DNA from: a virus | Virus record (IMG/VR): IMGVR_UViG_3300043788_000040 | Location: 32,001-96,000 of that record | Reading direction: 5' to 3' (one strand) | Length of the DNA stretch: 64,000 nt | Shown: one piece after another, positions 3,246 through 48,498 of the stretch | Position numbering within the stretch: position 1 is the stretch's first letter | How the letters are laid out: the number at the start of each line of letters is the position of its first letter | Translations under genes and position numbers: made by a program | Notes under the pieces: generated by a model | The model's input: only the letters and a program-made list of their open reading frames with translations | Told to the model about the DNA's origin: nothing | Database searches by the model: none

Positions 3246-3400
3246 GACGGAAGTGTCAAGTCTACCACGACTGGAAGCAGTGCGAAGAACCCGCCGTGGA
3301 CTACGTTCAGATAGACTACGAGGAAGACACCGTCAGGGTTTGGATGTGCGCCCACCACTGGGACGAACACCAGAAGAGAGTCAAGAATGCAACGCGCTAA
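3242..3400 (+). CDS. Small Cys/His (putative Zn-finger) protein, paralog 1
   Basis: Not in the ORF track; MRRKC-x8-CEEPAV..WMCAHHWD; start overlaps the upstream stop. Confidence 0.6.
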   Translation: MRRKCQVYHDWKQCEEPAVDYVQIDYEEDTVRVWMCAHHWDEHQKRVKNATR

Positions 3401-3662
3401 CCCACAGCTTTCCGCACTTGCCCTCCTTGTGCAGAGATTTGGCAAACAGATTCCGGGCGGATACGAGGTGCATGTCTCAGCGTTGGAGATGACAACCATG
3501 TCTCCGCATGGTATATTCCAAGAGGTGCCCGACGCTGATGGCAGGGGCGTGCGCTGGCAATACTTCCCGAACCACGTCATTGACATTGAAGGCGGCACGG
3601 TTCCCGACGAGAAGCCAGCGGCTCAGTTACCGGAGAAAACAGACAGTGATAGACCCGTATGA
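3387..3662 (+). CDS. Hypothetical protein
   Basis: Tightly packed ORF with a plausible RBS. Confidence 0.6.
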   Translation: MQRANPQLSALALLVQRFGKQIPGGYEVHVSALEMTTMSPHGIFQEVPDADGRGVRWQYFPNHVIDIEGGTVPDEKPAAQLPEKTDSDRPV

Positions 3663-29568: not shown

Positions 29569-29964
29569 ATGAGCCACTACGGGCGACTTGTGTATTTTGC
29601 AAGCCCACTGACACATCCCGATGCCGCAGTCAGGCTGGAACGGTCAGTGGCGGTCGCACGTGCCTGCGGTTGGTTCATGAACAACAAGCGTGAGATATTC
29701 TTTTTCTCTCCCATAACCCACGCCCACACCATAGCCATGGAGTGCTCACTTCCGTACGAGTGGCAGTTCTGGGCCGAAATTGATGAGTGCATGCTTTCAA
29801 GGTGTGAGGAGATTTGGGTGCTCTGCATCCCCGGATTTAAGAAGTCCACTGGCGTGAACGCGGAGCGGAAGATTGCTGAGCGTCTCGGTTTGCCATGCAG
29901 GTTCGTGATCCCACAGCCGGACGGTTCTTACGTCGTCTCGGATACGGAGCCGGAAGATGTGTGA
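29569..29964 (+). CDS. DUF1937-like (NDT-fold) protein
   Basis: VYFASPLTHPD..FSPITHAH..STGVNAE. Confidence 0.75.
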   Translation: MSHYGRLVYFASPLTHPDAAVRLERSVAVARACGWFMNNKREIFFFSPITHAHTIAMECSLPYEWQFWAEIDECMLSRCEEIWVLCIPGFKKSTGVNAERKIAERLGLPCRFVIPQPDGSYVVSDTEPEDV

Positions 29965-30256: not shown

Positions 30257-31226
30257 CCTCGTTTGGACGACGGACTGGCACTTCAGCGATGTCCCGCCCG
30301 GACGCCGTAGGGACGACTATCGTCTTGCCCTGCTTGACAAGCTCGCTTTCGTGCGTGACCTCACGGAAAAACTTCATGGTGCGGCGCTCTGCGGTGGCGA
30401 CGTGTTCCACATCAAGAAGCCCAACCACAACGGTAATAGCTTCCGCCTCATCATTGAACTTATCGGCGCTCTTCGGCGCTTCCCGCACGAACGGGTGTTC
30501 GGCAGCGTCGGCAACCACGACATCTCGTACGACCGCATGGATTCCCTACCTCGTCAACCGCTAGGATTGCTGATGGAGGTGGGCGCGTACCACAACCTGA
30601 ACCGAGAACCTGTTTTCTTCACCAACCGAGATGAGACCGTCAAGGTTTCGGTAGAGACCTTCCCCTACGCCGAGGGTGTGGAGACCATCCAGAACATCAT
30701 GAACGTCGGCCCGAGGCAGCCCGGCGTGACCTACAGGATCGGCATCGTCCACGCCTACGGGCACCCCGGCGACGCGGCGGACATGTTCGGAACACGCACG
30801 ATAGGGTACAATGAGCTTGAGGGCAGCGATTTTGACATCCTGCTCTGGGGACATGACCATTCTCGCCACGGGGTTGACGAGGTAGGCAAGACGACGCACA
30901 TCAACCTTGGCAGCATGGCACGGGCGGCGTTCACCTATGACGAGCTTGACCGCCCAGTCGTAGCGGCGATCTTGTCCTTTCAGCCGGACGGGACTTTTCA
31001 GTACGGCGAGAAGCCGATCCCGGTCAAGCCGATTGAGCAGGTCTTCGCATCGGCGGACAAGGGCGTGGAGATGGTTGCCAAGTCCGAGGAGATCAGCAAC
31101 TTCTTCGCGGAGATGGACGAGGCTGTTTCGGGGATAGAAGTTAACGATCCCCGTGCCGTCATCCACGAGCTATGTGGCGACGACGCTAAACTTGAGAGCC
31201 TAGTTTTGGAGGTTTGTGATCTGTGA
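30219..31226 (+). CDS. SbcD/Mre11-like nuclease
   Basis: TDWH, GGDVFH, GNHD, GHDH, NLGSMAR; close to the SbcC-like gene. Confidence 0.85.
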   Translation: MKIKLDDPKNRVNLVWTTDWHFSDVPPGRRRDDYRLALLDKLAFVRDLTEKLHGAALCGGDVFHIKKPNHNGNSFRLIIELIGALRRFPHERVFGSVGNHDISYDRMDSLPRQPLGLLMEVGAYHNLNREPVFFTNRDETVKVSVETFPYAEGVETIQNIMNVGPRQPGVTYRIGIVHAYGHPGDAADMFGTRTIGYNELEGSDFDILLWGHDHSRHGVDEVGKTTHINLGSMARAAFTYDELDRPVVAAILSFQPDGTFQYGEKPIPVKPIEQVFASADKGVEMVAKSEEISNFFAEMDEAVSGIEVNDPRAVIHELCGDDAKLESLVLEVCDL

Positions 31227-31394: not shown

Positions 31395-31715
31395 ATGAGT
31401 GAATATCAACACGGCATCTGGTGCTCCGGCAGCAGGCAGCACCCCCGTACACCCGGTAACTCCTGCTCCTGCCACTCTTGCGACGTGTTTTACAACCGCC
31501 TTGATGTCCTCCGGCACGACGAAGATCAGATCAAGCGCACCCTGCGGATAGCCACGTGCCCCGGCTGCCACAACCGTACCGAGTTTCCGTTCACCAGTGA
31601 GAGCGTCCCAAAGGAAGTTTTCTGCATCAAATGTTCTGTATGGGCACCCGTAGAGACAATCTCATGGGATGGATTGGACTTCGCCAAACTTCTGCCAGTC
31701 TTAGAGCGCCCGTGA
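31395..31715 (+). CDS. Cys-rich hypothetical protein
   Basis: Multiple CxxC. Confidence 0.6.
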   Translation: MSEYQHGIWCSGSRQHPRTPGNSCSCHSCDVFYNRLDVLRHDEDQIKRTLRIATCPGCHNRTEFPFTSESVPKEVFCIKCSVWAPVETISWDGLDFAKLLPVLERP

Positions 31716-32146
31716 GACCTTGGTTTTCTCTCCTCTACCTCGCCCTTGCGCTGGTTTCATTCCGCATGTGGGAACAATCCTCTGACCTGTGGTGGACTCT
31801 GGGTGCGGCGGGCTTTGCCTTGGCGTCCATCAGGGAGACCCTCCTGTATTTGAAAGAGACGTTCCGACAATGAGCACGGCGGCAAGCTTCGCGAATCCTT
31901 CAATAGGCGTGAGGCGTGTCATGGCGAGACGACGCAAAAGGGATCGGGTCGAGGAAAGAATCTACAAGACGGTCTGGCATATCTTGATCGCTGCTGTCGG
32001 TGTATACGAGCTTCGCAACCACAAAACCAAACTCTCCAAAGTCTTAGCCTGCGGTCTGATAGCCTTCCACGTTGACGCGGCCGTTTCGGATGCACTTGAC
32101 AAAGCCCCCCTCTCTCGGCGTATACTAGATAAGTTGCGCCCACACC

Positions 32147-34872: not shown

Positions 34873-35057
34873 AACAGTGCTGTTGGCAGGGCGATGACAT
34901 AAGGTGCGAGAAGCCGGGCGTCTGTTCCATAGACTGGCCCGATTGCGGTGACGACGGCAGCAGCATCTTTTGGTACTGCGCCGAGCACTATGACCACCTG
35001 ATTGCTCGTCTGAAAGAATCTGGGCGGATAGCCGTACTGAAGGGAAAGCATGCCTAA
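34869..35057 (+). CDS. Small Cys/His (putative Zn-finger) protein, paralog 3
   Basis: MKQCC..CEKPGV..WYCAEHYD. Confidence 0.6.
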   Translation: MKQCCWQGDDIRCEKPGVCSIDWPDCGDDGSSIFWYCAEHYDHLIARLKESGRIAVLKGKHA

Positions 35058-36036
35058 GAGAATTTTCCTGCTCGACACGATGTCGCAAGTCTACCGTGCT
35101 TACCACGCGGGGGCGCACCAGCGCATCCAGATGACCACCAAGGCAGGCTTCCCCACGGGCGCAACTTACATCCTAGCCCGCATGTTCAAGAAACTCTTCG
35201 CCGACCACAAGCCCGAGTACATGATCGCCTGCATGGAAGGCGGCTCCGGCGCTACGAATCGTGAGAAGATGTACCCCGAGTACAAAGCGAACAGACGCGG
35301 CGAGACTCCGAACGAACTTACACGGCAGTTCCCGTACATCAACGGCTTGATTGACGCCTACAATCTGAAACGCATCAGCGTGGAGGGGTATGAGGCGGAC
35401 GACATCATCGGAACACTGTCAAAGCAGTTCTACGAGAGCGACCCGGAGAACCAGATTTTCATCGTGACAGGCGACAAGGACATGTTCCAGCTTGTCAACG
35501 ACCGCATCTTCATCGTGAACCCGATGAAAGACCTCCTTGCCGACACGCAGAAGGTTGAGCTTATCGTCGGCGTGCCTCCCGCACTGGTAACCGATGTCAT
35601 GGCGCTGCGTGGCGACACCGTGGACAACGTACCTGGCGCACCAGGCATCGGCGACAAAGGTTCCGTCGCCATCATCAAGCAATTCGGATCGCTGACTGCT
35701 GCCCTTGACCGTGCAGCCGAAGTGACACGCAAGAGCTATCGTGAGTCGCTCCAGAACAACCGGGCGCAGATTGAACTCAGCCACAAGCTGGTCACCATTG
35801 ACCGTGACGCACCCGTGGGAGTCGGCTTGGATCAGTACGTGTTCAACGGGGCTGATGCCGAGGCACTGAAGAAGATTTACGCCGAGCTTGAGTTCGCATC
35901 GCTGCTAAGCAAGGAATCGCTGGATGCGGTTGAAGACTTTGCCGAGATCGTGCAGCCCGAGGCTCCAGCCGTGGTTGACACACGCACGACGATGACCGAT
36001 GACCAAGCGGACAAGCTGATTGACAGCCTGTTCTAG
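35050..36036 (+). CDS. 5'-3' exonuclease / flap endonuclease (PolI N-terminal-like)
   Basis: YRAYHA, YKANR, EADDIIG, GDKD, GDTVDNVPGAPGIGDK. Confidence 0.95.
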   Translation: MPKRIFLLDTMSQVYRAYHAGAHQRIQMTTKAGFPTGATYILARMFKKLFADHKPEYMIACMEGGSGATNREKMYPEYKANRRGETPNELTRQFPYINGLIDAYNLKRISVEGYEADDIIGTLSKQFYESDPENQIFIVTGDKDMFQLVNDRIFIVNPMKDLLADTQKVELIVGVPPALVTDVMALRGDTVDNVPGAPGIGDKGSVAIIKQFGSLTAALDRAAEVTRKSYRESLQNNRAQIELSHKLVTIDRDAPVGVGLDQYVFNGADAEALKKIYAELEFASLLSKESLDAVEDFAEIVQPEAPAVVDTRTTMTDDQADKLIDSLF

Positions 36037-36044
36037 GAGTAGAC

Positions 36045-36266
36045 ATGCCACAACCGTATCGGTGGTCAGACGGGTACAACCCGAACATTCCGCGTAACTG
36101 CACAGCCTGCGGGGAACTTCTCCTGTTGGAGAACCTATACGTGGACGATGGGTGTCCCTGTAATTCCGCAAGGGGCGTCAATTTCAAGCCCCAGCCGTGT
36201 GATCTATGCCAACTTGACTGTTGTGTCAAGCCGGGGCATCGGCTATCTCAGCTATTCGGCTCCTAA
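36045..36266 (+). CDS. Cys-rich small protein
   Basis: AGGAG RBS; several Cys pairs. Confidence 0.6.
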   Translation: MPQPYRWSDGYNPNIPRNCTACGELLLLENLYVDDGCPCNSARGVNFKPQPCDLCQLDCCVKPGHRLSQLFGS

Positions 36267-36285
36267 AAATAGTGAAAATCAGTTG

Positions 36286-36314
36286 TTGACAATTTCTCAG
36301 CTACGCAGTATTCT
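36286..36314 (+). promoter_or_regulatory. Sigma70 promoter of the Tyr/Leu tRNA operon
   Basis: TTGACA-17-TATTCT. Confidence 0.8.
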
Positions 36315-36323
36315 TTTAGAGCC

Positions 36324-36398
36324 ATGACAAACCTTACCCTATCCCTGACCTTGTATAGCCTGCTTAGCGGGCTTCACGGCGGTGTGTTCATCGGGTAA
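36324..36398 (+). CDS. Leu-rich attenuator leader peptide MTNLTLSLTLYSLLSGLHGGVFIG
   Basis: 7 Leu (CTT x3, CTA, CTG x2, TTG) + TAT; overlaps the antiterminator 5' strand. Confidence 0.75.
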   Translation: MTNLTLSLTLYSLLSGLHGGVFIG

Positions 36399-36424
36399 GA
36401 CAAGAATCAAACCCAGATTAGAAC

Positions 36425-36455
36425 AGCCGCCGAAGTCAGGCGGCTTTCGTATTTT
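36425..36455 (+). terminator. Attenuator terminator (alternative antiterminator 36377-36432)
   Basis: AGCCGCC-GAAGTCA-GGCGGCT-TTCGTATTTT; CGGCGGTGTGTTC pairs with GAACAGCCGCCG. Confidence 0.75.
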
Positions 36456-36466
36456 ATGGGCAAAAT

Positions 36467-36554
36467 GGAGGGGATGGCACAATGGCGTGCCAGCAGACTG
36501 TAAATCTGCCGACCCTTGCGGTCATGGTGGGTTCGATCCCCACCCTCTCCACCA
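36467..36554 (+). tRNA. tRNA-Tyr(GTA)
   Basis: GCAGA-CTGTAAA-TCTGC; long variable arm; CCA. Confidence 0.9.
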
Positions 36555-36569
36555 ATTTTGGAGCATCAA

Positions 36570-36800
36570 ATGAAAGTAACCCAGACGCACCTGATGAGGA
36601 AGACTGAGCAAGGCACCGAGGTCCACACGATATGCTGGCTCGATGTAAAGCCGAATGTGAAGGTTGGCTCAAGGGTGTCCTTAGAGGACTCGCCAAACGA
36701 GTGGTGGACTGTCTTGTCTCAGGGTGGGTTGCAAGACTCCTCAGAGATCAACCGGAAGTGGGGTCTGGACCTGCCGAAGACTCAACGGCTGGAAAGGTAA
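36570..36800 (+). CDS. Hypothetical protein
   Basis: GGAG RBS; ATG after the tRNA. Confidence 0.6.
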   Translation: MKVTQTHLMRKTEQGTEVHTICWLDVKPNVKVGSRVSLEDSPNEWWTVLSQGGLQDSSEINRKWGLDLPKTQRLER

Positions 36801-37091
36801 AGCGAAAGGGCATTGAGTCCGGCAAGGTCACGGTGTGCAAGCACTGCGACACGAAGCACCCCATGTACGCGAACGGGACGATTTGCTTCATGGCTTTCTT
36901 CTACATCTACGAGCGTGACTTGCTCTGGATGGCAAGTCACGACGGCACCGATGGCATATCGGGCTGGCGTGCGCTAGCGAATGATCTGGGGTTCAAGGAT
37001 GCAAAGATAGACGTGCCTTGGACATTCCCAGACGAGGGTCGTCTGATCCCGTACCGGAGGATCAAGGACGGCAAGTTTTTGAGCAAGTAAT

Positions 37092-37177
37092 GCGAGCGTG
37101 GCGGAATTGGCAGACGCAACAGGTCGAGAGCCTGTCGGTTAACAGCCATGGAGGTTCAAGTCCTCTCGCTCGCACCA
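37092..37177 (+). tRNA. tRNA-Leu(GAG), atypical loop (C33, A37, G38)
   Basis: Leu-type D-arm and variable arm; ACAGG-TCGAGAG-CCTGT; CCA. Confidence 0.8.
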
Positions 37178-37181
37178 AGAT

Positions 37182-37290
37182 TGTCGGGCTAATTCTGTGA
37201 AACGGATGTCGGCAGAACCCCCGGTGACGCGAGCCTAGCTGTGGCAGGCGAATTGACGCCAAGGCGCTTTGAGGCTGTGGTCGCCCGACA
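37182..37290 (+). ncRNA. Structured RNA of unknown class
   Basis: Closing stem TGTCGGGC/GCCCGACA spans the inter-tRNA spacer. Confidence 0.45.
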
Positions 37291-37298
37291 AAGAATTT

Positions 37299-37385
37299 GC
37301 GGATATGGCGGAGTTGGCAGACGCGCTGGTCTCAGAAGCCAGTGGGGTAAAACCCGTGGAGGTTCGAGTCCTCTTATCCGCACCA
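37299..37385 (+). tRNA. tRNA-Leu(CAG)
   Basis: CTGGT-CTCAGAA-GCCAG; long variable arm; CCA. Confidence 0.93.
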
Positions 37386-37388
37386 AGT

Positions 37389-37534
37389 TTGAGAGCGTTG
37401 AGTGGGGGAACTGGCATACCCGGAGCGCCGTAAGGTGACTCCACGTCCCCGAATTGACGGGGGCTGCGGCGCAGCGTGGCGAAGGCAGTGCGGGTTCGAT
37501 TCCCGCCTCGGAAAGCTGCGACAACCGCTCTCAA
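37389..37534 (+). ncRNA. Anticodon-less tRNA-like RNA (GTAA-capped arm)
   Basis: Leu-type D-arm, GGAG-CGCC-GTAA-GGTG-A-CTCC, T-arm GCGGG-TTCGATT-CCCGC, outer stem TTGAGAGCG/CGCTCTCAA. Confidence 0.6.
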
Positions 37535-37538
37535 GAAT

Positions 37539-37663
37539 TTCGGGCGACTTCGTTGTTCATGACAGCGAAGCAGTGAGTAAGTGGCGGAATATGGCAGACG
37601 CGGCACTTCGGTGCTTGGATGCAAATCCTTGTGGGTTCGATTCCCACCGCTCCATCGCCCGAA
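37539..37663 (+). ncRNA. Anticodon-less tRNA-Leu-like RNA (UUCG-capped arm)
   Basis: D-arm TGGCGGAATATGGCAGACGC, GGCAC-TTCG-GTGCT, variable arm, T-arm, outer stem TTCGGGCGA/TCGCCCGAA. Confidence 0.65.
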
Positions 37664-37679
37664 CGCGTATTGAGGTCTT

Positions 37680-38066
37680 ATGGCGAAGTTTGAAGACCAT
37701 TGCAAGGACTGTGAACGCATCCTCGGCAACAAGCGCGAGGACGTGAACCGCTGGATGGACGAGCTTTTCAAGCAGTACGGACCTCGTCATCGTAGGCATC
37801 GTCACTGCTGGCACGGGGTGCGCACGGCGCTCAAGTTGTTTGGTATTGAGGGTGCGAAAGCTGCTATCATCCATATCGTGCGCGACTGTGGCGAGGTGCC
37901 GAGCCAGCGCACTTACGACGAGACGGCGCTGGGTGGCGGTGGAATTGTCATCGCACCGGAGTACACGTACTCAGACGGCGAAGCGGCGCAGAAGTCGTTC
38001 GCTGATGTAGTGAACAAAGAGTTTGAACGTGCTGCTGGGATAATTGGTAAGGACTGGCAGCAATAA
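37680..38066 (+). CDS. His-rich phage protein (DUF6915-like)
   Basis: WMD..HRRHRH..HIVRDCG pattern. Confidence 0.6.
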   Translation: MAKFEDHCKDCERILGNKREDVNRWMDELFKQYGPRHRRHRHCWHGVRTALKLFGIEGAKAAIIHIVRDCGEVPSQRTYDETALGGGGIVIAPEYTYSDGEAAQKSFADVVNKEFERAAGIIGKDWQQ

Positions 38067-38152
38067 GCGCGAGTGGCGGAATGGCAGACGCACTAGCTTG
38101 AGGTGCTAGCGGTGGAAACATCGTGGAGGTTCGACTCCTCTCTCGCGCACCA
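38067..38152 (+). tRNA. tRNA-Leu(GAG)
   Basis: CTAGC-TTGAGGT-GCTAG; CCA. Confidence 0.95.
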
Positions 38153-38157
38153 AATTT

Positions 38158-38296
38158 GGGGGAATAGCATTGTGGAATGCGCCGGGGGTAACCCGGAGAA
38201 GTCGGTTCGACTCCGACTCTATATTCGGCAGTTGCGTTGTTCCCGACCGGATTGATTCCGGCTCGCGGTGAGCAGAGGGCGATACTTCCCCCACCA
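38158..38296 (+). ncRNA. CCA-ended tRNA-like RNA with a 5-nt anticodon loop and an insert after the T-arm
   Basis: GGGGGAA/TTCCCCC-A-CCA; D-arm GCATT-GTGG-AATGC; CCGGG-GGTAA-CCCGG; T-arm GTCGG-TTCGACT-CCGAC. Confidence 0.65.
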
Positions 38297-38303
38297 AGTT
38301 AGG

Positions 38304-38397
38304 GGAAGCTCCGTTGTGCTGTCGGTTCGACTCCGACGACGTAGGGAAGGGCAAGCCGTGTAGACGGCCCGATTCTCGGAGAGGCACAACGACTTCC
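38304..38397 (+). ncRNA. T-arm-containing structured RNA
   Basis: Outer stem GGAAG..CGTTGTGC/GCACAACG..CTTCC; 17-nt T-arm identical to the preceding element. Confidence 0.55.
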
Positions 38398-38405
38398 ATA
38401 AGTTT

Positions 38406-38491
38406 GCGGCTGTGGCGGAATTGGCAGACGCGCTAGCCTTAGGAGCTAGTGGCTAATAACCGTGGGGGTTCGAGTCCCTCCAGCCGCACCA
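38406..38491 (+). tRNA. tRNA-Leu(TAG)
   Basis: CTAGC-CTTAGGA-GCTAG; CCA. Confidence 0.95.
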
Positions 38492-38497
38492 AGCTTT

Positions 38498-38571
38498 GGG
38501 CGCGGAATATGTCGCCGTGGCGGATCGTATGCCGACACGGTGCCCGCACATTCGGGGTAGCGCCCACACCA
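38498..38571 (+). ncRNA. tRNA-sized CCA-ended RNA without a canonical cloverleaf
   Basis: TGGGCGC/GCGCCCA stem followed by CACCA. Confidence 0.45.
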
Positions 38572-38575
38572 GATT

Positions 38576-38662
38576 GCCGGGATGGCGGAATTGGCAGACG
38601 CGGCGGCCTCAAACACCGTTGCCTTAAAAAGCGTGCAGGTTCGACTCCTGTTCCCGGCACCA
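38576..38662 (+). tRNA. tRNA-Leu(CAA)
   Basis: Loop CTCAAAC; Leu-type body; CCA. Confidence 0.9.
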
Positions 38663-38697
38663 ATTCCAGTATTATCGTGGTAGGGAGCTACACTACC

Positions 38698-39039
38698 ATG
38701 AAAATCTTCACCGCAGTTCTTTTGACTCTGTCGTTCGCCACACTGGCATCAGCCGCGACCATCAAGGCGTTCTCAGTGAACAACGTCGTTCGGGTCAAGG
38801 ACAACATCTACACCGCTGAGAAGTACATCGCCGACACGCACGGGGAAGCCAACGCAGGCGACATCGCCGAGCAGTACATCACGTTCAAGACCGAGGGCTG
38901 CCTACACAACCCCGCTGCCAACACCAGCGCGATCTATGTGACAACCCCGGACGGCGCAAAGCTGATCTTTTCCGATGGCGGCACTTGCACGGTTGATGTC
39001 ATGCAGAGCGACTCCAAAGCGCCTGCCGTCACAAAGTAA
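38698..39039 (+). CDS. Secreted small protein
   Basis: Signal peptide ending ASA; two Cys. Confidence 0.7.
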   Translation: MKIFTAVLLTLSFATLASAATIKAFSVNNVVRVKDNIYTAEKYIADTHGEANAGDIAEQYITFKTEGCLHNPAANTSAIYVTTPDGAKLIFSDGGTCTVDVMQSDSKAPAVTK

Positions 39040-39108
39040 CCTGTAAGCTTCTCCGTTTCAACCACTTACTGGTGGACAAATCTACACCCCTGCCTGTATA
39101 CTATTCCC

Positions 39109-39330
39109 ATGAAGCTGACTTACTGGATCGCTGACTGCCTCAACGACGCTCCGTGCTATTCTGTCCGTGCGAAGACACGCCGGGAAGTCAAAGCAGAGTT
39201 GGCTAACCGTGAAGTCCGGGGCGGTGATTACGGCAAGCCACGCAAGGTCACGGTTGAATACGCCGGGGCTTTTGACCTCGTGCTCCAATGCACGGGAGAA
39301 GGCGGTCTTTACGAAGGGAAGCGCCAATGA
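39109..39330 (+). CDS. Hypothetical protein (probably leaderless)
   Basis: TGGACA-18-TATACT ends 6 nt before the ATG. Confidence 0.6.
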   Translation: MKLTYWIADCLNDAPCYSVRAKTRREVKAELANREVRGGDYGKPRKVTVEYAGAFDLVLQCTGEGGLYEGKRQ

Positions 39331-39441
39331 AGCGCCCAAACAAGATCAGGCTGGTGGGGTCAAAACAACAGTCCAAAATCGGGCTGTTTGACGAAGTGCG
39401 GATCGTGCGAATTCAAGTCAAGCGTACGGTTAAGGCATCTA

Positions 39442-39786
39442 ATGACCGTGGGTAAAGAGCTTTGGGAAATTCTGGTGCCGTGCGTACGCAACGACGGGCG
39501 ACCGATTCACACTCGGTTCCACAGGGTGTGGGATCGCAAGGTTGAAGCGATCTGCGGTGGTCTGACTGTCCTCACGCCTGTCGGCAAAGGTACGTGGGTG
39601 CATGAAGGGCGCACTCTCCGTGAGCGCATGATTCCCGTGCGTGTCATGTGTACTCGGGAACAGGTTGACGAAATCATTGATTTGACGCTTGAGTACTACG
39701 AACAACTCGCTGTCATGGCTTACAGGATAAGCGACATGGTAATCCTGAGACACCGGGCGGCGAGGAAAGGCGACAAAAATGTCTAA
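39442..39786 (+). CDS. Hypothetical protein
   Basis: LWEILVP..GGLT..GKGTW..RMIPVR. Confidence 0.6.
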   Translation: MTVGKELWEILVPCVRNDGRPIHTRFHRVWDRKVEAICGGLTVLTPVGKGTWVHEGRTLRERMIPVRVMCTREQVDEIIDLTLEYYEQLAVMAYRISDMVILRHRAARKGDKNV

Positions 39787-39895
39787 CGAAAGGGGAAAGC
39801 TTGGAGTGTTCGGGGCGTTGGTGGCAGTGCTCATCATTTTGGGTCTGCTCTCTCTGTTCGCCAACTACATCGGCATTCTACCCAAGTACTAACCT

Positions 39896-40126
39896 ATGGC
39901 GCTGCGACTTGAATACAAGGACGACGTCGGCAACACGCACTCCCGGCAGTGGCACTACAGTGAACCCCTGCCCGAGGAATACAAGCGGGCACGTGTCCTC
40001 AAAATAACCGCCGATGGCGATGAACTGGACTTGATCCTGCACACGTTGACCGCAACGATCAAGCCAACCGTGACGATTGATGCGACACCAGCGCCAGCCG
40101 CACTGACGAAAGGGAGCGGACAATGA
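39896..40126 (+). CDS. Hypothetical protein
   Basis: Coupled to the downstream gene. Confidence 0.55.
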   Translation: MALRLEYKDDVGNTHSRQWHYSEPLPEEYKRARVLKITADGDELDLILHTLTATIKPTVTIDATPAPAALTKGSGQ

Positions 40127-42397: not shown

Positions 42398-42790
42398 TTG
42401 ACAACGTCCGAGCATCTCTGGGCACTGGCAACGGAGAGGGCGAACGCCCCCGAACACATGCGGGAATTGTTCGCTCTCGCCATTGACCGCGCCACGTGGG
42501 AAGCAGCCGACAAAATCAATCACGACGTCGGACGTTCCATTTCTTACGACTATCCGCTTTCATCTCGTTGGCAGGGATCGGAACGGCGTTTTTACGCTGA
42601 GGCGCTTCATCGCTACGTTCAACTCAAGCTGGCGCTCCACCGGGTGAAGACAAGGCTTTCGTGGCACACGCCGTCAGAAGACGAAGAGGTCTTCCTTCAC
42701 CACAAAGAGACAGCGCTCCGTGCCCAGATTAAAGCTGCACGAGCCGCCAAGGGCGAAGCGATCTGGGGCGATTTGACGCCCGAAAAATAA
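42398..42790 (+). CDS. Hypothetical protein
   Basis: Follows the upstream gene directly. Confidence 0.55.
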   Translation: MTTSEHLWALATERANAPEHMRELFALAIDRATWEAADKINHDVGRSISYDYPLSSRWQGSERRFYAEALHRYVQLKLALHRVKTRLSWHTPSEDEEVFLHHKETALRAQIKAARAAKGEAIWGDLTPEK

Positions 42791-42794
42791 CCTC

Positions 42795-42823
42795 TTGACA
42801 GTTTCCCGATTTCTTGGTACTAT
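42795..42823 (+). promoter_or_regulatory. Sigma70 promoter of the Pro/Met/Phe tRNA region
   Basis: TTGACA-17-TACTAT with extended TG. Confidence 0.85.
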
Positions 42824-42876
42824 ATGTGAGTACAAACTAAGCGGCGAAGTAAGCCGCTCATAGGTGCTGCCTTCAA

Positions 42877-42951
42877 ATGAACACGATGCGACCATTTTCG
42901 GGATTCCGACCGTACACGCCACCCAGCGTGCGCGGGGTCGCAAGTCTCTGA
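42877..42951 (+). CDS. Pro/Phe/Met-containing attenuator leader peptide MNTMRPFSGFRPYTPPSVRGVASL
   Basis: CCA, CCG, CCA, CCC, TTT, TTC and an internal ATG; AGGT RBS; 3' end overlaps the antiterminator. Confidence 0.7.
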   Translation: MNTMRPFSGFRPYTPPSVRGVASL

Positions 42952-42961
42952 CTTAGGAGAC

Positions 42962-42991
42962 AGCCCCCGCGCTGCAAGGCGTCGGGGCTTT
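42962..42991 (+). terminator. Attenuator terminator-like hairpin (alternative antiterminator 42930-42972)
   Basis: AGCCCC-C-GCGCT-GCAA-GGCGT-C-GGGGCT-TT (weak U tract); GCGCGGGG pairs with CCCCGCGC. Confidence 0.6.
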
Positions 42992-43051
42992 GTGGGTTAT
43001 GAAATTCCCAACAAAGAAGCAATTTTAGCCGCCCCGACTGTAGTTCTGTAT

Positions 43052-43139
43052 CGGGACGTAGCCTCGTAAATGGAAGCGATCTCGCTTTGGAAGCGAGAGC
43101 TTAACCGCCTTGGGAGTTCGAGTCTCCCCGTCCCGACCA
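43052..43139 (+). tRNA. tRNA-Pro(TGG), atypical (long variable region, A37)
   Basis: CGGGACG/CGTCCCG-A-CCA; CTCGC-TTTGGAA-GCGAG. Confidence 0.8.
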
Positions 43140-43168
43140 AGTTTCGTTCGTGAAGTCAACGAACATGT

Positions 43169-43245
43169 CAGGGCGTAGCGCAGTCTGGTAGCGCACTCGT
43201 TTCGGATACGAGGGGTCGCTGGTTCGAATCCAGTCGCCCTGACCA
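43169..43245 (+). tRNA. tRNA-Pro(CGG) (A37)
   Basis: CTCGT-TTCGGAT-ACGAG; CCA. Confidence 0.92.
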
Positions 43246-43250
43246 AGTTT

Positions 43251-43430
43251 GAGAGGCCCGGTGGACGTACCCATCGGCGTAAGTGGGTGGTTACATCCAG
43301 CCTCGTTGAGTGTGAGGTGGAGCGACATACGGGAAGGCGGCTGGCGATCAGCCCCCGGAGTCGTGGTACCGCAAGGTCCATAGTGCTGCCTGCCTAACCG
43401 CTCGCCGGATGGCAGCACGAGTCGCCCATA
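43251..43430 (+). ncRNA. Multi-hairpin structured RNA
   Basis: Non-coding spacer between tRNAs with several stems, e.g. GTGCTGCC/GGCAGCAC. Confidence 0.45.
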
Positions 43431-43434
43431 ATTT

Positions 43435-43511
43435 CGGGACGTAGCGAAGCCTGGTATCGCGCACCCTTGGGGTGGGTGAGGCCCCGAGTTCGAATCTCGG
43501 CGTCCCGACCA
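43435..43511 (+). tRNA. tRNA-Pro(GGG)
   Basis: CACCC-TTGGGGT-GGGTG; CCA. Confidence 0.95.
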
Positions 43512-43639
43512 AATTTTAGTAGTCAAAGGAAGCAATGATGAACAAACAACGCGGCTGGTACACAAGGATTTCAATGTAAGGCACCCTCACGTCCGTTTCG
43601 GTCGGAGGGATACTATCCCTCTGGGAAAGGAGACGGACG

Positions 43640-43825
43640 ATGAAGGTCGTGAAGGTGAAGTTTAACGCCAAGATGTTTTTCGTGAAGTTTGTGTTTTTCG
43701 TTGTTATCGCTGTGGTTGTGATCGCGATCTTCAAGAAGATCGGCGAGTTGGTTACCGCAGCGAAGTTGGTTGAGATGGCAGGCGAGGCTGTAAGCGAGGC
43801 TTTGTCTGAGGCAATCGACGTTTAA
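43640..43825 (+). CDS. Small membrane protein
   Basis: AGGAG RBS; one TM segment. Confidence 0.6.
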   Translation: MKVVKVKFNAKMFFVKFVFFVVIAVVVIAIFKKIGELVTAAKLVEMAGEAVSEALSEAIDV

Positions 43826-43828
43826 GTT

Positions 43829-43932
43829 TTGCAGGTTCGGATTGAGGGGCAGGGTTAATGGCCCTGCTCCGTCCCGTGTGGGTGACCCATTATCACCCTT
43901 AAGCGCCAGTGAAAAGCTGGAGCCTGCGACCA
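43829..43932 (+). ncRNA. CCA-ended structured RNA
   Basis: TTGCAGGTTC/GAGCCTGCGA closing stem then CCA; internal GGGCAGGG/CCCTGCTC hairpin. Confidence 0.45.
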
Positions 43933-43936
43933 GTTT

Positions 43937-44008
43937 TGCGGGGAAGTGAATTGGATCACGTCAGCCTCATAAGCTGAAAACCCGGTTCGAATCCGGCGAC
44001 CGCAACCA
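43937..44008 (+). tRNA. tRNA-Met(CAT)-like, degenerate acceptor stem
   Basis: TCAGC-CTCATAA-GCTGA; T-arm; CCGCAACCA end. Confidence 0.65.
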
Positions 44009-44080
44009 ATTTGGGCAGGTAGTGCCTCCGAACGGCGGGCACGTAAAGCGGAATCAACCGCCATCCTAGCCCGACATTTT

Positions 44081-44686
44081 ATGGAACAGTACCCAGAGAT
44101 ACCCGGCGCGAAGAAAGCTCCCCTCGGGGAGAAGTGCATCGCGTTCTACAAGTACGACGGCTCCAACCTCCGGTGGGAATGGAGTCCGAAGCGTGGCTGG
44201 TACAAGTTCGGCACACGGACGGAATTGTTTGCCCCGAACCATCCGCTGTGGGGGCAGGCGGTGCCGCTCTTCAACGCAGTCGGCGACGACATCGTCAAGC
44301 GGGTGCTGGCGAGTGACAAGAAGTTCCGCAACATTGAGCGGATCATAGCGTTCACGGAATTCTTCGGGCCTTCAAGCTTTGCCGGGACGCACGACGAGAA
44401 GGAACAGAAGGAACTCAGGCTCTTTGACGTTTGGCTGTACAAGAAAGGCAGGATGTCCCCCCGGTGGTTTGTGGAGACGTTCGGAGACGCACCCTATGCG
44501 GCTCAGGTGATCTACGAAGGCAACCTGAACATGGAGTTCATCCGCGACGTGCGGACTGGGAAGTATCCGGTGTGGGAAGGAGTCGTGGCGAAGGGCGACG
44601 ACTTCATGGTCAAGATCAAGACCGAGGCGTACATGCTGAAGCTGAAAGAAGTGTACGGTCTGAACTGGGAAAAGTTTTCGGAGTAA
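44081..44686 (+). CDS. RNA ligase-like nucleotidyltransferase
   Basis: Motif I KYDGSN, EFFG, LFDV, EGVVAK, VKIK; located inside the tRNA cluster. Confidence 0.75.
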   Translation: MEQYPEIPGAKKAPLGEKCIAFYKYDGSNLRWEWSPKRGWYKFGTRTELFAPNHPLWGQAVPLFNAVGDDIVKRVLASDKKFRNIERIIAFTEFFGPSSFAGTHDEKEQKELRLFDVWLYKKGRMSPRWFVETFGDAPYAAQVIYEGNLNMEFIRDVRTGKYPVWEGVVAKGDDFMVKIKTEAYMLKLKEVYGLNWEKFSE

Positions 44687-44687
44687 A

Positions 44688-44764
44688 CGGGACGTAGCGT
44701 AGCCTGGTATCGCGCATGCTTCGGGAGCATGAGACCGTGGGTTCGAATCCCACCGTCCCGACCA
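44688..44764 (+). tRNA. tRNA-Pro(CGG) (G37)
   Basis: CATGC-TTCGGGA-GCATG; CCA. Confidence 0.95.
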
Positions 44765-44769
44765 AGCTT

Positions 44770-44958
44770 ATGAGCAACAAGGTCAATCATAGACGGAGTG
44801 GGAAAGTTCGGGCGCAGCGCAGCAGGCGTTCGTCTAATCTGGTCAACGACCCGCGCCGGGACATCGGCAGGAATCACAACGACCAACTTTGCCACTCGGA
44901 GTGGAAGAAGATCAAGACGAGAATTGAGCGTCGCAGGTTAAAGGGAGAAGGAAGATGA
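44770..44958 (+). CDS. Small Arg-rich protein
   Basis: ATG after the tRNA; ATGA-coupled to the RF gene. Confidence 0.55.
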   Translation: MSNKVNHRRSGKVRAQRSRRSSNLVNDPRRDIGRNHNDQLCHSEWKKIKTRIERRRLKGEGR

Positions 44959-45615
44959 TTCTGGAGATAAGAGCAGCGGAAGGAGGCGAGGACGCGAAGC
45001 TCCTCGTTGAAGACCAAGTCACCATCTATGCCCGTGTGGCAACACGGAGGGGTCTTTAGTTTTGAGATTGTGGAGAAGCGACCGGGTCTCGTCGTATTGA
45101 GGATCACGGGCGCTGGGGCGGAAAGCATACTCGCCAACGAATCGGGTGGTCACCGCTGGCAAAGGGTACCGCCGACCGAGAGGCGAGGCAGGGTGCAGAC
45201 GAGCACGATCACCGTCGCAACGTTCGCCGAGGTGGCGACGGAAGAGTTCAAGGTGAACCCCACTGACTTAGAATGGGACACCATGCGAAGCGGGGGCAAG
45301 GGCGGGCAGAACGTGAACAAGGTTGAGTCCTGCGTTCGTGTCACGCACAAGCCGACCGGGCTGGCAGTACGATGTGAGTCCGAGCGGTCGCAGTCACGCA
45401 ACAGGGCGACGGCGCTTGCTACCCTGACTGCCCGGCTGGCAGCAGCGCACCGGGAGCGGGAGCAGGGCGCACAGTCCGCCGACCGGAAGGCGCAGATCGG
45501 CACGGGACAGCGTGGGGACAAGCGTAGGACAATCCGTGAGAAGGACGGGGTCGTGACAGACCACATCCTAAACCGGAAATGGCGATACGCGGACTATGTA
45601 CGTGGGCTGTGGTAA
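44955..45615 (+). CDS. RF1-type peptide chain release factor (no domain 1), made by +1 programmed frameshift
   Basis: Frame 0 MILEIRAAEGGEDA..RRGL-TAG; +1 frame ESGGHRWQRVPPTE..GRVQTST and GGKGGQNVNK; GGAGG-GGT-CTT-TAG at 45046-45059. Confidence 0.85.
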
Positions 45616-45618
45616 GAT

Positions 45619-45696
45619 GGCGGTGTAGCTCAGTTGGCTAAGAGCGCTGGTCTCATAAACCAGAGGTCGCTGGTTCGATCCCAGCCACCGCTACCA
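45619..45696 (+). tRNA. tRNA-Met/Ile2(CAT), elongator type
   Basis: CTGGT-CTCATAA-ACCAG; CCA. Confidence 0.9.
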
Positions 45697-45783
45697 AATT
45701 TTGCAGTACAAGGAGACAACGATGGCTAACCTTAGCAAGACCACTCATGCCGCGTAAGGCGTGGGCGGTCAAAGGAGAACCAA

Positions 45784-46299
45784 ATGTTGTCAGAAATCAA
45801 AAAGGCGGTCTCGCTGTACTTTGAGCCGCTCAAGAAGCTGTTGCAGTTCCGCGTAAAGCGCTGGCATACGGCTATGCGCGGCTGGGACGAGAAGGACATC
45901 CGGGTCATCATCTGTCTTGAAGACTTGATCTGGTACTGGATGGTTTTGGAATGGCTGTTCTGGGACAATGGCACGTACATCTGCCACTGGCTCCATTACG
46001 TCCCGCTTCCAAAATTTATCTGCAACTGGGAGCGTCACTGGGACAAGGACGACCCGGAGTACTTCGCCAAGTTCGGTGATTGGTTCGGCGATGACTTCGG
46101 ATGCCTGTGGCACGTATGGGTCTGTGACCCGTTGTGCCAGTGGGTGTGGAAGCACAAGGATTTCCACAAGGCGTGGCCTCAGTGGGAATTGACGCTGGAA
46201 GAAGCTCGCAAGACGTTTGCCCATGATCCGGCCATTTATGAGTGGGTTGAAAAAGAGCTTGAACAGCACAAGAAGTGGGATGCAGAAAAGGCTGAATAG
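45784..46299 (+). CDS. Trp-rich hypothetical protein
   Basis: AGGAG RBS. Confidence 0.65.
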   Translation: MLSEIKKAVSLYFEPLKKLLQFRVKRWHTAMRGWDEKDIRVIICLEDLIWYWMVLEWLFWDNGTYICHWLHYVPLPKFICNWERHWDKDDPEYFAKFGDWFGDDFGCLWHVWVCDPLCQWVWKHKDFHKAWPQWELTLEEARKTFAHDPAIYEWVEKELEQHKKWDAEKAE

Positions 46300-46318
46300 C
46301 GGTATCATATACAGAGTG

Positions 46319-46458
46319 GGAACCCCTCACTAACCTGACGAGGGGAGTTACCTGAAGACGCGGGATGGCCCAAAAGCGCTAGTTACCCGGCAGTCTAGGC
46401 TCTTAATCGCGTAACGGCTGAATAGCCGGAGCCGATGGTAACGGGGTTCTCACGCCAA
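46319..46458 (+). ncRNA. Structured RNA of unknown class
   Basis: GGGAACCCC/GGGGTTCTC closing stem followed by ACGCCA; internal hairpins. Confidence 0.45.
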
Positions 46459-46512
46459 GTTTTCAGTCCCAGTCCTGTCTGACTGGGTGGTTGCGGGGGC
46501 AAAAATTTCTGT

Positions 46513-46589
46513 CGCGGGATGGAGCAGCCCGGAAGCTCGCTTGGCTCATAACCAAGAGGTCGGTGGTTCAAATCCACCTCCCGCTACCA
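46513..46589 (+). tRNA. Initiator-type tRNA-Met(CAT)
   Basis: C1/U72 mismatch; fMet-type D-arm GAGCAGCCCGGAAGCTC; CTTGG-CTCATAA-CCAAG. Confidence 0.9.
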
Positions 46590-46594
46590 GTTCA

Positions 46595-47005
46595 ACGCCC
46601 GTAGGCTACGAGCCGAGAAGCAGAAGGGCTAGCAGAGTCATACGACCTTATAGGACGGGAAAGCTCTGCAACAGATGTGGCACGGGAGAACCGATGCGGG
46701 GAAGTCGCCTGTAAGTTTCCGTGCCGTCGTTTTCGGTTCCGTGTTCGTTTAAGGCGCAAGCCGGGTTCGTCACGGATTAAAGTGGTGGTCCAACGGAGAC
46801 GCCCCACGCCGAAGTGAGTTAACGCTCTAATACGGGAGCCAATCAATAACTCCCGTGGGGGCAGGTAAGACGCATTCGCTGAGTAATCTCCGGTTATCCG
46901 GTTGGTGCAGCGGTGAAATCGCGAATCATAGCGTCTTCTTAAACCGCCAGCCATGAGGGTCCCTGACGTCGGGTGGTGCAGTACTTCATGGAGCAATTTG
47001 GCGGT
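46595..47005 (+). ncRNA. ~410-nt structured non-coding region
   Basis: No credible ORF; many stems (GGCACGGGA/TTCCGTGCC, ACGGGAG/CTCCCGT, AAGACGC/GCGTCTT, ACCGCCA/TGGCGGT). Confidence 0.5.
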
Positions 47006-47011
47006 ACGAGT

Positions 47012-47153
47012 TTCGCAGCGGTGTATTGTACGGTTACTTCATGCAACCAGTAGGTCGCGGGTTCGAATCCCGTCATCCCAACGCTTTACGGGGTGTAGCT
47101 CAGTGGTAGAGCGACAGGTAAGAAAAACGCCGTGCATCTTTGTTCCCTGCGGA
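47012..47153 (+). ncRNA. YrlA-like bacterial Y RNA
   Basis: Permuted tRNA-like domain (T-arm, loop-closed acceptor CATCCC/GGGGTG, D-arm) on a long outer stem with GGTTACTTC. Confidence 0.75.
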
Positions 47154-47162
47154 TTAACTTTT

Positions 47163-47339
47163 CCTCGTTTAGCAAAACGAGGTGGCGCAGCGGAGAAGCT
47201 TTAGCGACTCCGTCAGCCGTTCTCGGACGTAAACCGAGTGGTGGAGGCGGGCACACTGTGCTCGCCCCTCAATGTCAGTTGAAGTACCGACGAGGCACGA
47301 AATGTGTGAACCGTTGACTCGGGAAAAAGACTGGCACCA
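47163..47339 (+). ncRNA. Multi-hairpin RNA ending in CACCA
   Basis: Series of hairpins; no credible ORF. Confidence 0.4.
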
Positions 47340-47525
47340 AATTTGAAGATGTTGTCCCAGTCAAGCTGTCGGACTAAACTCTGGACCCGGAGTAATGGGC
47401 TTGAAAGAAGCCATGCCCTAATAAGGAAGGCTGACAGCAAAAGATTACAATGAAGCTCACGTCCCAACTCGACACGTTTACCACGCCGCTTAAGGCGGCG
47501 CAGTAAACCTATCTGTGTACTGTAC

Positions 47526-47601
47526 CCGGACGTAGCTGATGTGGACTTAGCGCCACCCTGAAAAAGTGGAGATGGGAGTTCGATTCTCCCCGTCCGGACC
47601 A
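47526..47601 (+). tRNA. tRNA-Phe(GAA) (A37)
   Basis: Loop CTGAAAA; CCGGACG/CGTCCGG-A-CCA. Confidence 0.8.
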
Positions 47602-47603
47602 AC

Positions 47604-47681
47604 GGGGAGCGAGCTAGTCCGGTGATTTAGCGTCCGCCTGAAGAGCGGAAGAATTCGGTTCGACTCCGAGGCTCCCCGCCA
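47604..47681 (+). tRNA. tRNA-Phe(GAA) (G37, G73)
   Basis: TCCGC-CTGAAGA-GCGGA; CCA. Confidence 0.8.
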
Positions 47682-48042
47682 CTCCTTCAAAAATTCTACC
47701 TTCGTACTTCGCAGCCTCATCCAACCACTTTTGTTCAGTTCTATTTGAATGCTCGATACGATGACAGTTTGAGCACAGCAGATCACATTTGTCTAATTCT
47801 GCTTTGATCACTTCCCAGCTTCTATTGGCGACGTCACCGATACCGAAGTCCTTTTCGTTCGGATCACGGTGGTGGAATTCAAAAGCAGCCGGGTGCCCGT
47901 TGAATCCACATCGCAAACATTTGCCACCAAGATATGCAATAGCAGCATTTTTAGCGCGTATGCGTCTGATTTTCGTGTTGCAAGAGTTGCAGCGATAGCG
48001 ACGCTGGTCGGGATGATCACGCCCACAGAGAGGACATTGCAT
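47614..48042 (-). CDS. HNH endonuclease
   Basis: CLRCG..EFHHRDP..KCDLLCSNCHRIEH; lower GC; its tail runs antisense through tRNA-Phe. Confidence 0.85.
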   Translation of the reverse strand: MQCPLCGRDHPDQRRYRCNSCNTKIRRIRAKNAAIAYLGGKCLRCGFNGHPAAFEFHHRDPNEKDFGIGDVANRSWEVIKAELDKCDLLCSNCHRIEHSNRTEQKWLDEAAKYEGRIFEGVAGSLGVEPNSSALQADAKSPD

Positions 48043-48138
48043 TGGTAGAGCACTCCTTGTTCTACCTTACCTTTGTTCCTGACAAATTGCAACGGCCTCA
48101 GTATTATATTGTCACGAGCACTAGAGGTCTCGTGAGAT

Positions 48139-48498
48139 ATGGCACACCAAAAAGTAGCTGGACGTGGGTGTATTTACTGCATTTACGAAAGCACCGACAA
48201 CACTCCGCTAGACAAGCAAAGCGCACGATACGTGGGAAAAACCTTTGATTTTGACGCCCGGTTAGCCGGACACAATCGAGAAATCCAAGCCCAACAAGAT
48301 GGGAAAAAGACCGCCTCCCTTAACGTGGATAGGAAGATTGCGTCGGGTCGGCGTGGCGGTAAGAGATACACGATGGAGTGTATCAAGCACCACGTGGCAA
48401 GCACAGATTTGAGTGCGTGGGAAAAGCATCTCATTGCTGAGTACAACACATACGGCGCTGCCGCCGAGCTTCAGTGGAACGAGACTGAAGGCGGATAG
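48139..48498 (+). CDS. GIY-YIG-like endonuclease
   Basis: GCIY..YVGKT..R..H..WEKHLI..N. Confidence 0.7.
   Translation: MAHQKVAGRGCIYCIYESTDNTPLDKQSARYVGKTFDFDARLAGHNREIQAQQDGKKTASLNVDRKIASGRRGGKRYTMECIKHHVASTDLSAWEKHLIAEYNTYGAAAELQWNETEGG

Follow-up and report, generated by a model that had tools for sequence, protein, structure and literature searches.

Classical attenuators, such as those of the trp, his and leu operons, respond to the charging of transfer RNA (tRNA). Control of this kind also extends to the translation apparatus, the pheST operon of Escherichia coli being attenuated through a leader peptide (pheM) that contains cognate Phe codons. T-box riboswitches work without translation: a single specifier codon and the conserved T-box sequence let them bind uncharged tRNA directly. 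In bacteria, growth rate and the stringent response govern the transcription of tRNA genes, chiefly through the promoter, and the tRNA genes of phages are usually viewed as constitutive cargo. Here we analyse a viral tRNA operon that appears to be controlled in another way. The window, i.e. the whole stretch of 64,000 nucleotides (nt) under study, comprises bases 32001-96000, on one strand, of the 170,563-bp IMG/VR record IMGVR_UViG_3300043788_000040 (label G000). Its Tyr/Leu unit consists, in this order, of a sigma-70-type promoter, a 24-codon open reading frame (ORF), an intrinsic terminator, a tRNA-Tyr gene and five tRNA-Leu genes. An original prediction, made from the DNA letters alone, had read this unit as a leader-peptide attenuator, and that reading is now supported by conservation, compensatory changes, folding with a ribosome mask and a match between codons and tRNAs in further leaders. 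With a probability of roughly 85%, the unit is a ribosome-mediated transcription attenuator that gates the tRNA operon, and it belongs to a set by which each amino-acid-sorted tRNA block in the phage family is gated. It would be a known kind of regulator in a new use, on tRNA genes, and is apparently unpublished.

Every part named in the original prediction was recovered. The promoter TTGACA-17-TATTCT lies at 36286-36314 (+) and matches the sigma-70 consensus at 10 of 12 positions. Taken together, promoter-like sites show no enrichment (8 observed, 8.3 expected); the call is nevertheless supported because such sites occupy the same relative position in relatives. Furthermore, the pattern TTGACA-N16-18-TAnnnT occurs only five times in the 170-kb record (record positions 30338, 68286, 74795 and 126567 on the + strand and 42221 on the - strand), three of these sites precede the leaders of tRNA blocks, and consensus host-type promoters seem to be reserved for RNA-gene operons. 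The near-leaderless ORF (36324-36398, +) runs from ATG to TAA and starts 10 nt past the -10 hexamer. It contains seven Leu codons (CTT three times, CTG twice, CTA and TTG) and one Tyr codon (TAT), and it lacks TTA. Most of these belong to a regulatory run, codons 4-14 (36333-36365), which includes region 1 and has Leu at positions 4, 6, 8, 10, 13 and 14 and Tyr at position 11. A 5' hairpin follows within the ORF (36357-36373), where 36357-36363 pair with 36367-36373 in 7 bp around the loop TTA; four of its five aligned pairs are changed on both sides among five homologs, and it is possibly a pause hairpin for RNA polymerase.

The last seven codons of the ORF form region 2, the 5' arm of the antiterminator (36377-36396), whose partner, region 3 (36411-36432), overlaps the 5' arm of the terminator (36425-36431), the two structures being mutually exclusive. 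The latter (AGCCGCC-GAAGTCA-GGCGGCT-TT; 36425-36455, +) has a G+C-rich 7-bp stem (36425-36431 with 36439-36445), a 7-nt loop and a T-rich tail, and is the best-ranked terminator match on the + strand in a scan of 19 kb. The stop codon of the ORF lies at the edge of the apical loop of the antiterminator, and in this window 27 nt separate it from the terminator stem. Between the end of the terminator and tRNA-Tyr there are 11 nt, so that no separate promoter can serve the tRNA genes and they are reachable by read-through only. The genes themselves, all on the + strand and all with the anticodons originally listed, are tRNA-Tyr(GTA) at 36467-36554, with the long variable arm of the bacterial type, tRNA-Leu(GAG) at 37092-37177, tRNA-Leu(CAG) at 37299-37385, a second tRNA-Leu(GAG) at 38067-38152, tRNA-Leu(TAG) at 38406-38491 and tRNA-Leu(CAA) at 38576-38662; together they span 36467-38662. 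A Leu(TAA) gene is absent from the whole 170-kb record.

Folding predicts that antiterminator and terminator are alternatives between which the position of a ribosome decides. The leader region folds more stably than all of 200 shuffles (z = -3.1). In the free RNA (-45.0 kcal/mol), the Leu/Tyr-rich 5' half pairs with the 3' end of the ORF, 36333-36339 and 36348-36354 being bound to it, and the terminator is formed. A 30-nt ribosome footprint was then forced unpaired in 36321-36456, with the A site moved codon by codon. When the A site is at any of codons 2-14 except codon 4, the terminator retains 0 pairs and all 12 nt of 36421-36432 are engaged in the antiterminator. Of the seven Leu codons, five fall at these positions, as does the Tyr codon. 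With the A site anywhere between codon 15 and the stop codon, the terminator re-forms. The comparison of folds with and without a footprint, which had been put forward as a check, hence reproduces a trp-like, stall-dependent switch. The antiterminator itself is predicted at -30.0 kcal/mol (z = -5.0), a stability matched by 0 of 500 sequences in which its upstream arm was dinucleotide-shuffled; the same holds, again with 0 of 500 shuffles, for the antiterminators of the two other tRNA blocks of the record, Pro/Met/Phe (z = -3.8) and Val/Ala/Asp/Cys/Gly/Glu (z = -4.6).

In the proposed mechanism, transcription would begin at the strong host-type promoter and the leader would be translated immediately. 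If decoding were slow, the ribosome would be held at the Leu/Tyr codons 6-14, leaving the last seven codons of the ORF free to pair with 36411-36432 once this segment is made; with the 5' arm of the terminator captured in this antiterminator, RNA polymerase would continue into tRNA-Tyr and the five tRNA-Leu genes. If decoding were fast, the ribosome would reach the stop codon and melt or cover the 5' arm of the antiterminator, the terminator hairpin (36425-36445) would form and transcription would halt 11 nt before the first tRNA. This direction of the switch is suggested by the stop codon at the edge of the antiterminator loop, where a finishing ribosome would remove the antiterminator and could not cover the terminator.

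Conservation of the leader and its pairings was examined in related phages. Megablast and blastn searches of the region against GenBank phages, which yielded no close relative, returned nothing, or only a 70-nt match of tRNA-Tyr to Xanthomonas phages. Relatives were first found by a search with the neighbouring 5'-3' exonuclease, which yielded a complete 332-kb record (G001, locus L004) and a 76-kb contig (L002), both with a promoter, a Leu/Tyr-rich ORF and a terminator ahead of tRNA-Tyr and tRNA-Leu genes. Pattern searches then gave further variants from viral contigs and from metagenome contigs, where 19 of 21 matches were real leaders. In total, 14 distinct sequence variants of the Tyr/Leu leader were collected, followed by tRNA-Tyr/Leu genes wherever the DNA extends far enough. 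A fifteenth (L155) came to light solely via the protein gene downstream of tRNA-Tyr; the 3' end of its ORF differs, and yet it has its own antiterminator overlapping its own terminator. Across all 15 variants the predicted antiterminators range from -24 to -31 kcal/mol and engage at least 5 nt of the terminator 5' arm, and the terminator hairpins range from -14 to -19 kcal/mol, with the stop codon at the edge of the antiterminator loop in each case.

The substitutions among these variants follow the predicted pairing. In an alignment of five sequences, 78.8% of cells are paired, compared with at most 49% when the partners are slid, and seven pairs are changed on both sides, a number reached by 0 of 500 shuffles. 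L167 and L171 differ by a C-to-T change in region 3 that is accompanied by G-to-A changes in region 2 as well as in region 4, the two segments with which region 3 can alternatively pair, and this three-way change is the signature that would be expected of mutually exclusive helices. The ORF is constrained as well. In the 14 variants its start and stop positions are fixed, the stop being TAA or TGA, and all indels within it are multiples of three, whereas those past the stop are not. The conserved 3' ends of the ORFs coincide with the antiterminator arm and are thus conserved as RNA. Both the leader ORF and its pairing, on which the original prediction could have failed, are therefore retained in relatives, with covariation.

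The same comparison bears on an inverse coupling of the pyrBI type, in which a ribosome close behind RNA polymerase would prevent termination and good translation would turn the tRNA genes on. We regard this as very unlikely. It would fit the behaviour of transcripts cut before the 3' arm of the terminator, which form the antiterminator without a ribosome and whose default is not clearly 'off'; however, with the stop codon placed as it is in 15 of 15 variants, a terminating ribosome would cover the antiterminator arm and not the terminator, and the block-specific enrichment of codons described below has no role in such a model.

A further mark of a ribosome-mediated attenuator is a leader that favours codons related to the products of the controlled genes, and the record offers three leaders for this comparison. 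The record is fragmentary, with a G+C content of 56% and an estimated completeness of 54%, and the phage it stems from measures roughly 300 kb or more. Its 31 tRNA genes are arranged in three blocks sorted by amino acid: the Val/Ala/Asp/Cys/Gly/Glu block, whose first tRNA is at record position 30590, the Tyr/Leu block, and the Pro/Met/Phe block (window 43052-47681). The attenuator design recurs before both other blocks, in unrelated sequence. Ahead of the Pro/Met/Phe block, a TG-extended promoter (TTGACA-17-TACTAT, 42795-42823, +) is followed by a second 24-codon ORF (42877-42951, +) with the Pro codons CCA (twice), CCG and CCC, an internal ATG and the Phe codons TTT and TTC. A perfect 8-bp antiterminator (42930-42937 with 42965-42972, +) would compete there with a terminator hairpin (42962-42973 with 42978-42989, +) that has a T-rich tail, the whole switch occupying 42930-42989. 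Downstream (43052-47681, +) lie the genes for Pro (TGG, CGG twice and GGG), Met (CAT, three copies) and Phe (GAA, two copies), with ORFs interleaved; the leader covers all five anticodons of its block and is conserved in relatives. The leader ORF of the Val/Ala/Asp/Cys/Gly/Glu block has 46 codons (record 30385-30525) and a terminator just before record 30590. A 14-nt pattern devised for this leader was unspecific, only 3 of more than 120 matches being real.

In the Tyr/Leu leader, Leu and Tyr account for 8 of 23 residues against 2.6 expected (p = 0.003), the highest fraction among the 632 short ORFs of the record, and all five anticodons of the block have a cognate codon. The 14 variants all retain at least one each of CTA, CTG, CTT or CTC, TTG, and TAT or TAC. 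The original prediction had pointed out that the leader has no TTA and the cluster no Leu(TAA), and this is borne out on a larger sample, as TTA accounts for none of the 78 Leu codons in 14 Tyr/Leu leaders. The link holds in the other direction too: in G002, a relative of 463 kb with 69 tRNAs and six leaders, a leader with eight Ser codons and a single TTA, the sole TTA among the six leaders, stands before four tRNA-Ser genes and tRNA-Leu(TAA). The three leaders of the record are enriched solely for the amino acids of their own blocks (p = 0.003, 0.003 and 0.012; off-diagonal p >= 0.75), and they cover 13/13, 5/5 and 5/5 of the anticodons of these blocks, which random codon draws achieve with probabilities of 9e-4, 2.6e-3 and 5e-3.

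Similar enrichment of cognate codons is seen in eight other leader types or copies. G001 and G002, both 100% complete, supply leader types beyond those of the fragmentary record. The Ile/Thr/Gln leader of G001 has 13 cognate codons within its first 15, and the Trp/His/Arg/Asn/Gln/Lys leader of G002 contains CGA, CGG, CGT and CGC once each, before Arg tRNAs with the anticodons TCG, CCG, ACG and GCG. In all 14 leaders tested, frame 0 exceeds either other frame in residues of the leader's own set by a factor of at least 1.5, and mostly of about two to three. In two cross-tables that together comprise nine leaders, the own block scores highest or tied highest, with one exception, the Pro/Met/Phe leader of G002, whose block is included only in part.

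These results also bear on the simplest alternative, namely that the short ORFs are small proteins with their own terminators, or untranslated, that the tRNAs arise from constitutive leak-through, and that the codon match is coincidental or reflects a T-box-like specifier. Being hydrophobic, in the manner of a small membrane peptide, the product of the Tyr/Leu leader would suit such a view, but other blocks have leaders that are Thr-rich, Ser-rich or basic. In the cross-tables, all but one of the nine leaders score highest, or tied highest, for their own block. No T-box or other Rfam model matches, and reading frame, stop position and indel phase are conserved together with ORF 3' ends that double as the antiterminator arm. 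We consider this alternative the most improbable of those weighed here. A small hydrophobic, toxin-like peptide was considered separately and rejected, since the leaders of other blocks are polar or basic.

What exactly is sensed is a subtler question. As the leader has at least one codon for each anticodon species, the quantity sensed would be the decoding activity that the products of the block supply, and tRNA supply would come under a closed negative-feedback loop. The unit could instead be a real attenuator that reports amino-acid supply, through tRNA charging, or general translation capacity, tuning tRNA output to the nutrition of the host. A stalled ribosome cannot distinguish a missing tRNA from an uncharged one, and the folding and shuffle results do not separate charging from tRNA abundance. 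However, amino-acid starvation is not relieved by extra tRNA, which would make such a loop futile, and the coverage of every anticodon species of the own block, including that for the rare CTA, fits the sensing of isoacceptors better than that of amino acids. Control by charging or nutrition is therefore unlikely, if less remote than the two alternatives discussed above. For an attenuator that senses decoding, the natural trigger could be depletion or cleavage of host tRNAs, loss of host tRNAs induced by the phage itself, a mismatch in codon usage, or plain homeostasis. It is likely that this giant-phage family possesses a phage-wide regulon of decoding-speed sensors, with sorted blocks under closed-loop control, leaders that sample one codon per isoacceptor, and each tRNA set transcribed only when its own codons are read slowly.

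Several observations weigh against an attenuator of the kind proposed. In this window, the leader has a weak purine motif before its ATG and a very short 5' untranslated region, and the T tract of the terminator is interrupted (TTTCGTATTTT). In homologs with 8-10-bp terminators, equilibrium folding with the mask always keeps the terminator. Folds of transcripts cut before the terminator 3' arm were used for these homologs instead; the switch appears in them only under such co-transcriptional folding and would rely there on co-transcriptional order. The antiterminator formed by cut transcripts in the absence of a ribosome, already mentioned, counts here too, and the untranslated default may differ from the superattenuation of trp. 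The stall window also has Thr, Ser and Asn codons, whose tRNAs are in other blocks, and cross-talk from these non-cognate codons is possible. Enrichments in single leaders are moderate, and the strength of the codon-matching case lies in the combined leaders. In L168, a close relative, the block includes a tRNA-like gene called as Leu(taa), and the leader lacks TTA. Finally, the phage itself is uncultured, and in a tblastn search with the neighbouring 5'-3' exonuclease the nearest protein of a cultured phage did not exceed 36% identity.

Additional features were noted in and around the tRNA blocks. Tyr/Leu-block elements resembling tRNAs lie between the tRNA-Leu genes (37439-37514, 37570-37654, 38256-38345 and also 38164-38218, the last with a borderline Rfam tRNA match); their T arms are intact and their anticodon loops aberrant, and ARAGORN reports them at a relaxed threshold only, with 'anticodons' of 2 or 4 nt. 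Comparable genes occur in relatives, such as a 'Leu(taa)' without U33 in L168 and, in both L159 and L167, a 'Phe(aaa)' whose variable arm is long. The L168 gene, with its poor acceptor stem, was judged to be an aberrant tRNA-like gene and dismissed as a counter-example to the pairing of TTA with Leu(TAA). In G001, a tRNA-like gene whose halves are split by an intron-like insert of ~90 nt (L008:1391-1550) directly precedes tRNA-Gln. No function could be assigned from Pfam or PHROGs to the small ORFs interleaved with the tRNA genes, the best hit being a sub-threshold match to DUF6915.

The first tRNA block also contains, between tRNA-Cys and tRNA-Gly, a full-length bacterial type A RNase P RNA (RF00010, 181 bits versus a gathering score of 100; record 31609-31959, L156), which ends 42 nt before the start of the window; L150, a near-identical contig, has it at the same place. 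Encoded by the phage, such an RNA would process the long 5' leaders of read-through transcripts. An ORF that ends before the leader of this block (record ~29700-29960) resembles, by eye, region 4 of a sigma-70-family factor. Within the Pro/Met/Phe operon, a match to YrlA (RF02553) is found at window 47027-47139 (45 bits versus gathering 69, E = 7e-8), and weaker YrlA-like matches lie beside suppressor tRNAs in G001 (L008:2229-2466). These amber-suppressor tRNAs (anticodon CTA) number two in G001 (L008:2203-2279 and 2414-2489) and three in G002 (L162, reverse strand); they share a block with tRNA-Lys(TTT) and, in G001 only, with tRNA-Gln(TTG), and no leader was seen in the 330 nt upstream of this block. 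The stop codon of the Pro/Met/Phe leader of G001 is TAG. In the Ile/Thr/Gln and Tyr/Leu blocks of G002, a protein-coding gene lies between the terminator and the first tRNA (L162 reverse 2975-3528; L012/L159), and the attenuators would therefore also gate small proteins. Its homolog in the window, the ORF at 36570-36797, belongs to no known family.

If the proposed mechanism holds, a classic sensing device has been re-used so that tRNA genes are switched by the decoding of their own codons, isoacceptor by isoacceptor. RNA genes would be found under leader-peptide attenuation for the first time, their own products being the molecules sensed, and the phage would gain an automatic answer to depletion of host tRNAs or to anticodon-nuclease defences. 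Confirmation would explain the sorting of tRNA genes by amino acid in these phages and would provide a mechanism for the on-demand replacement of host tRNAs by a virus, with a bearing on tRNA-cleaving defences and on phage-driven turnover of the translation apparatus. It would also make available a series of compact, orthogonal parts responsive to the speed at which specific codons are decoded. Because the units combine a consensus sigma-70 promoter with intrinsic terminators, E. coli extracts or a defined translation system would allow a direct test.

Set against described systems, these phage units share traits with several. Xanthomonas phage XacN1 carries 56 tRNA genes (PMC5852040) and likewise has a large tRNA set interleaved with small ORFs. 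Unlike the sorted blocks described here, the first 50 kb of XacN1 mix tRNAs of different amino acids, and leaders were not searched for there; it was considered as a cultured model and rejected, as its tRNAs are not sorted by amino acid. The claim that attenuation control of phage tRNA genes is undescribed agrees with full-text literature searches, which found no description of leader-peptide attenuation of tRNA genes, most subscription journals being outside their coverage. With T-box riboswitches the units have in common that the choice between terminator and antiterminator depends on the state of a specific tRNA; in contrast to them, the phage leaders have a conserved ORF with many cognate codons and do not match the T-box model. 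Indeed, Rfam searches (T-box RF00230 and the Thr, Leu, His, Trp and Phe leaders) gave no match at E <= 1 in 35000-40000, in 42500-48200 or in the loci of relatives. The resemblance to the leaders of amino-acid operons is one of design, not of sequence family. The pheST attenuator, for its part, controls a synthetase protein in a cellular genome and senses a single amino acid, and the phage units differ from it in these respects. The closest likeness in architecture is to the enterobacterial leaders thrL (Thr/Ile), ilvL/ivbL (Ile/Leu/Val), leuL, hisL, pheL and trpL. As in these, a promoter-proximal short ORF rich in regulatory codons precedes a terminator with an overlapping antiterminator, and the stop codon is placed such that a finishing ribosome would block the antiterminator; the region 1:2 pairing in the free RNA of this window is a further shared trait, and the Ile/Thr/Gln leader of relatives resembles thrL in composition. 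Unlike the enterobacterial leaders, the phage units are viral and control tRNAs rather than biosynthetic enzymes, so that the loop would close on decoding capacity; they sample the codon of each isoacceptor instead of repeating a single one, and parallel units partition the amino acids among them.

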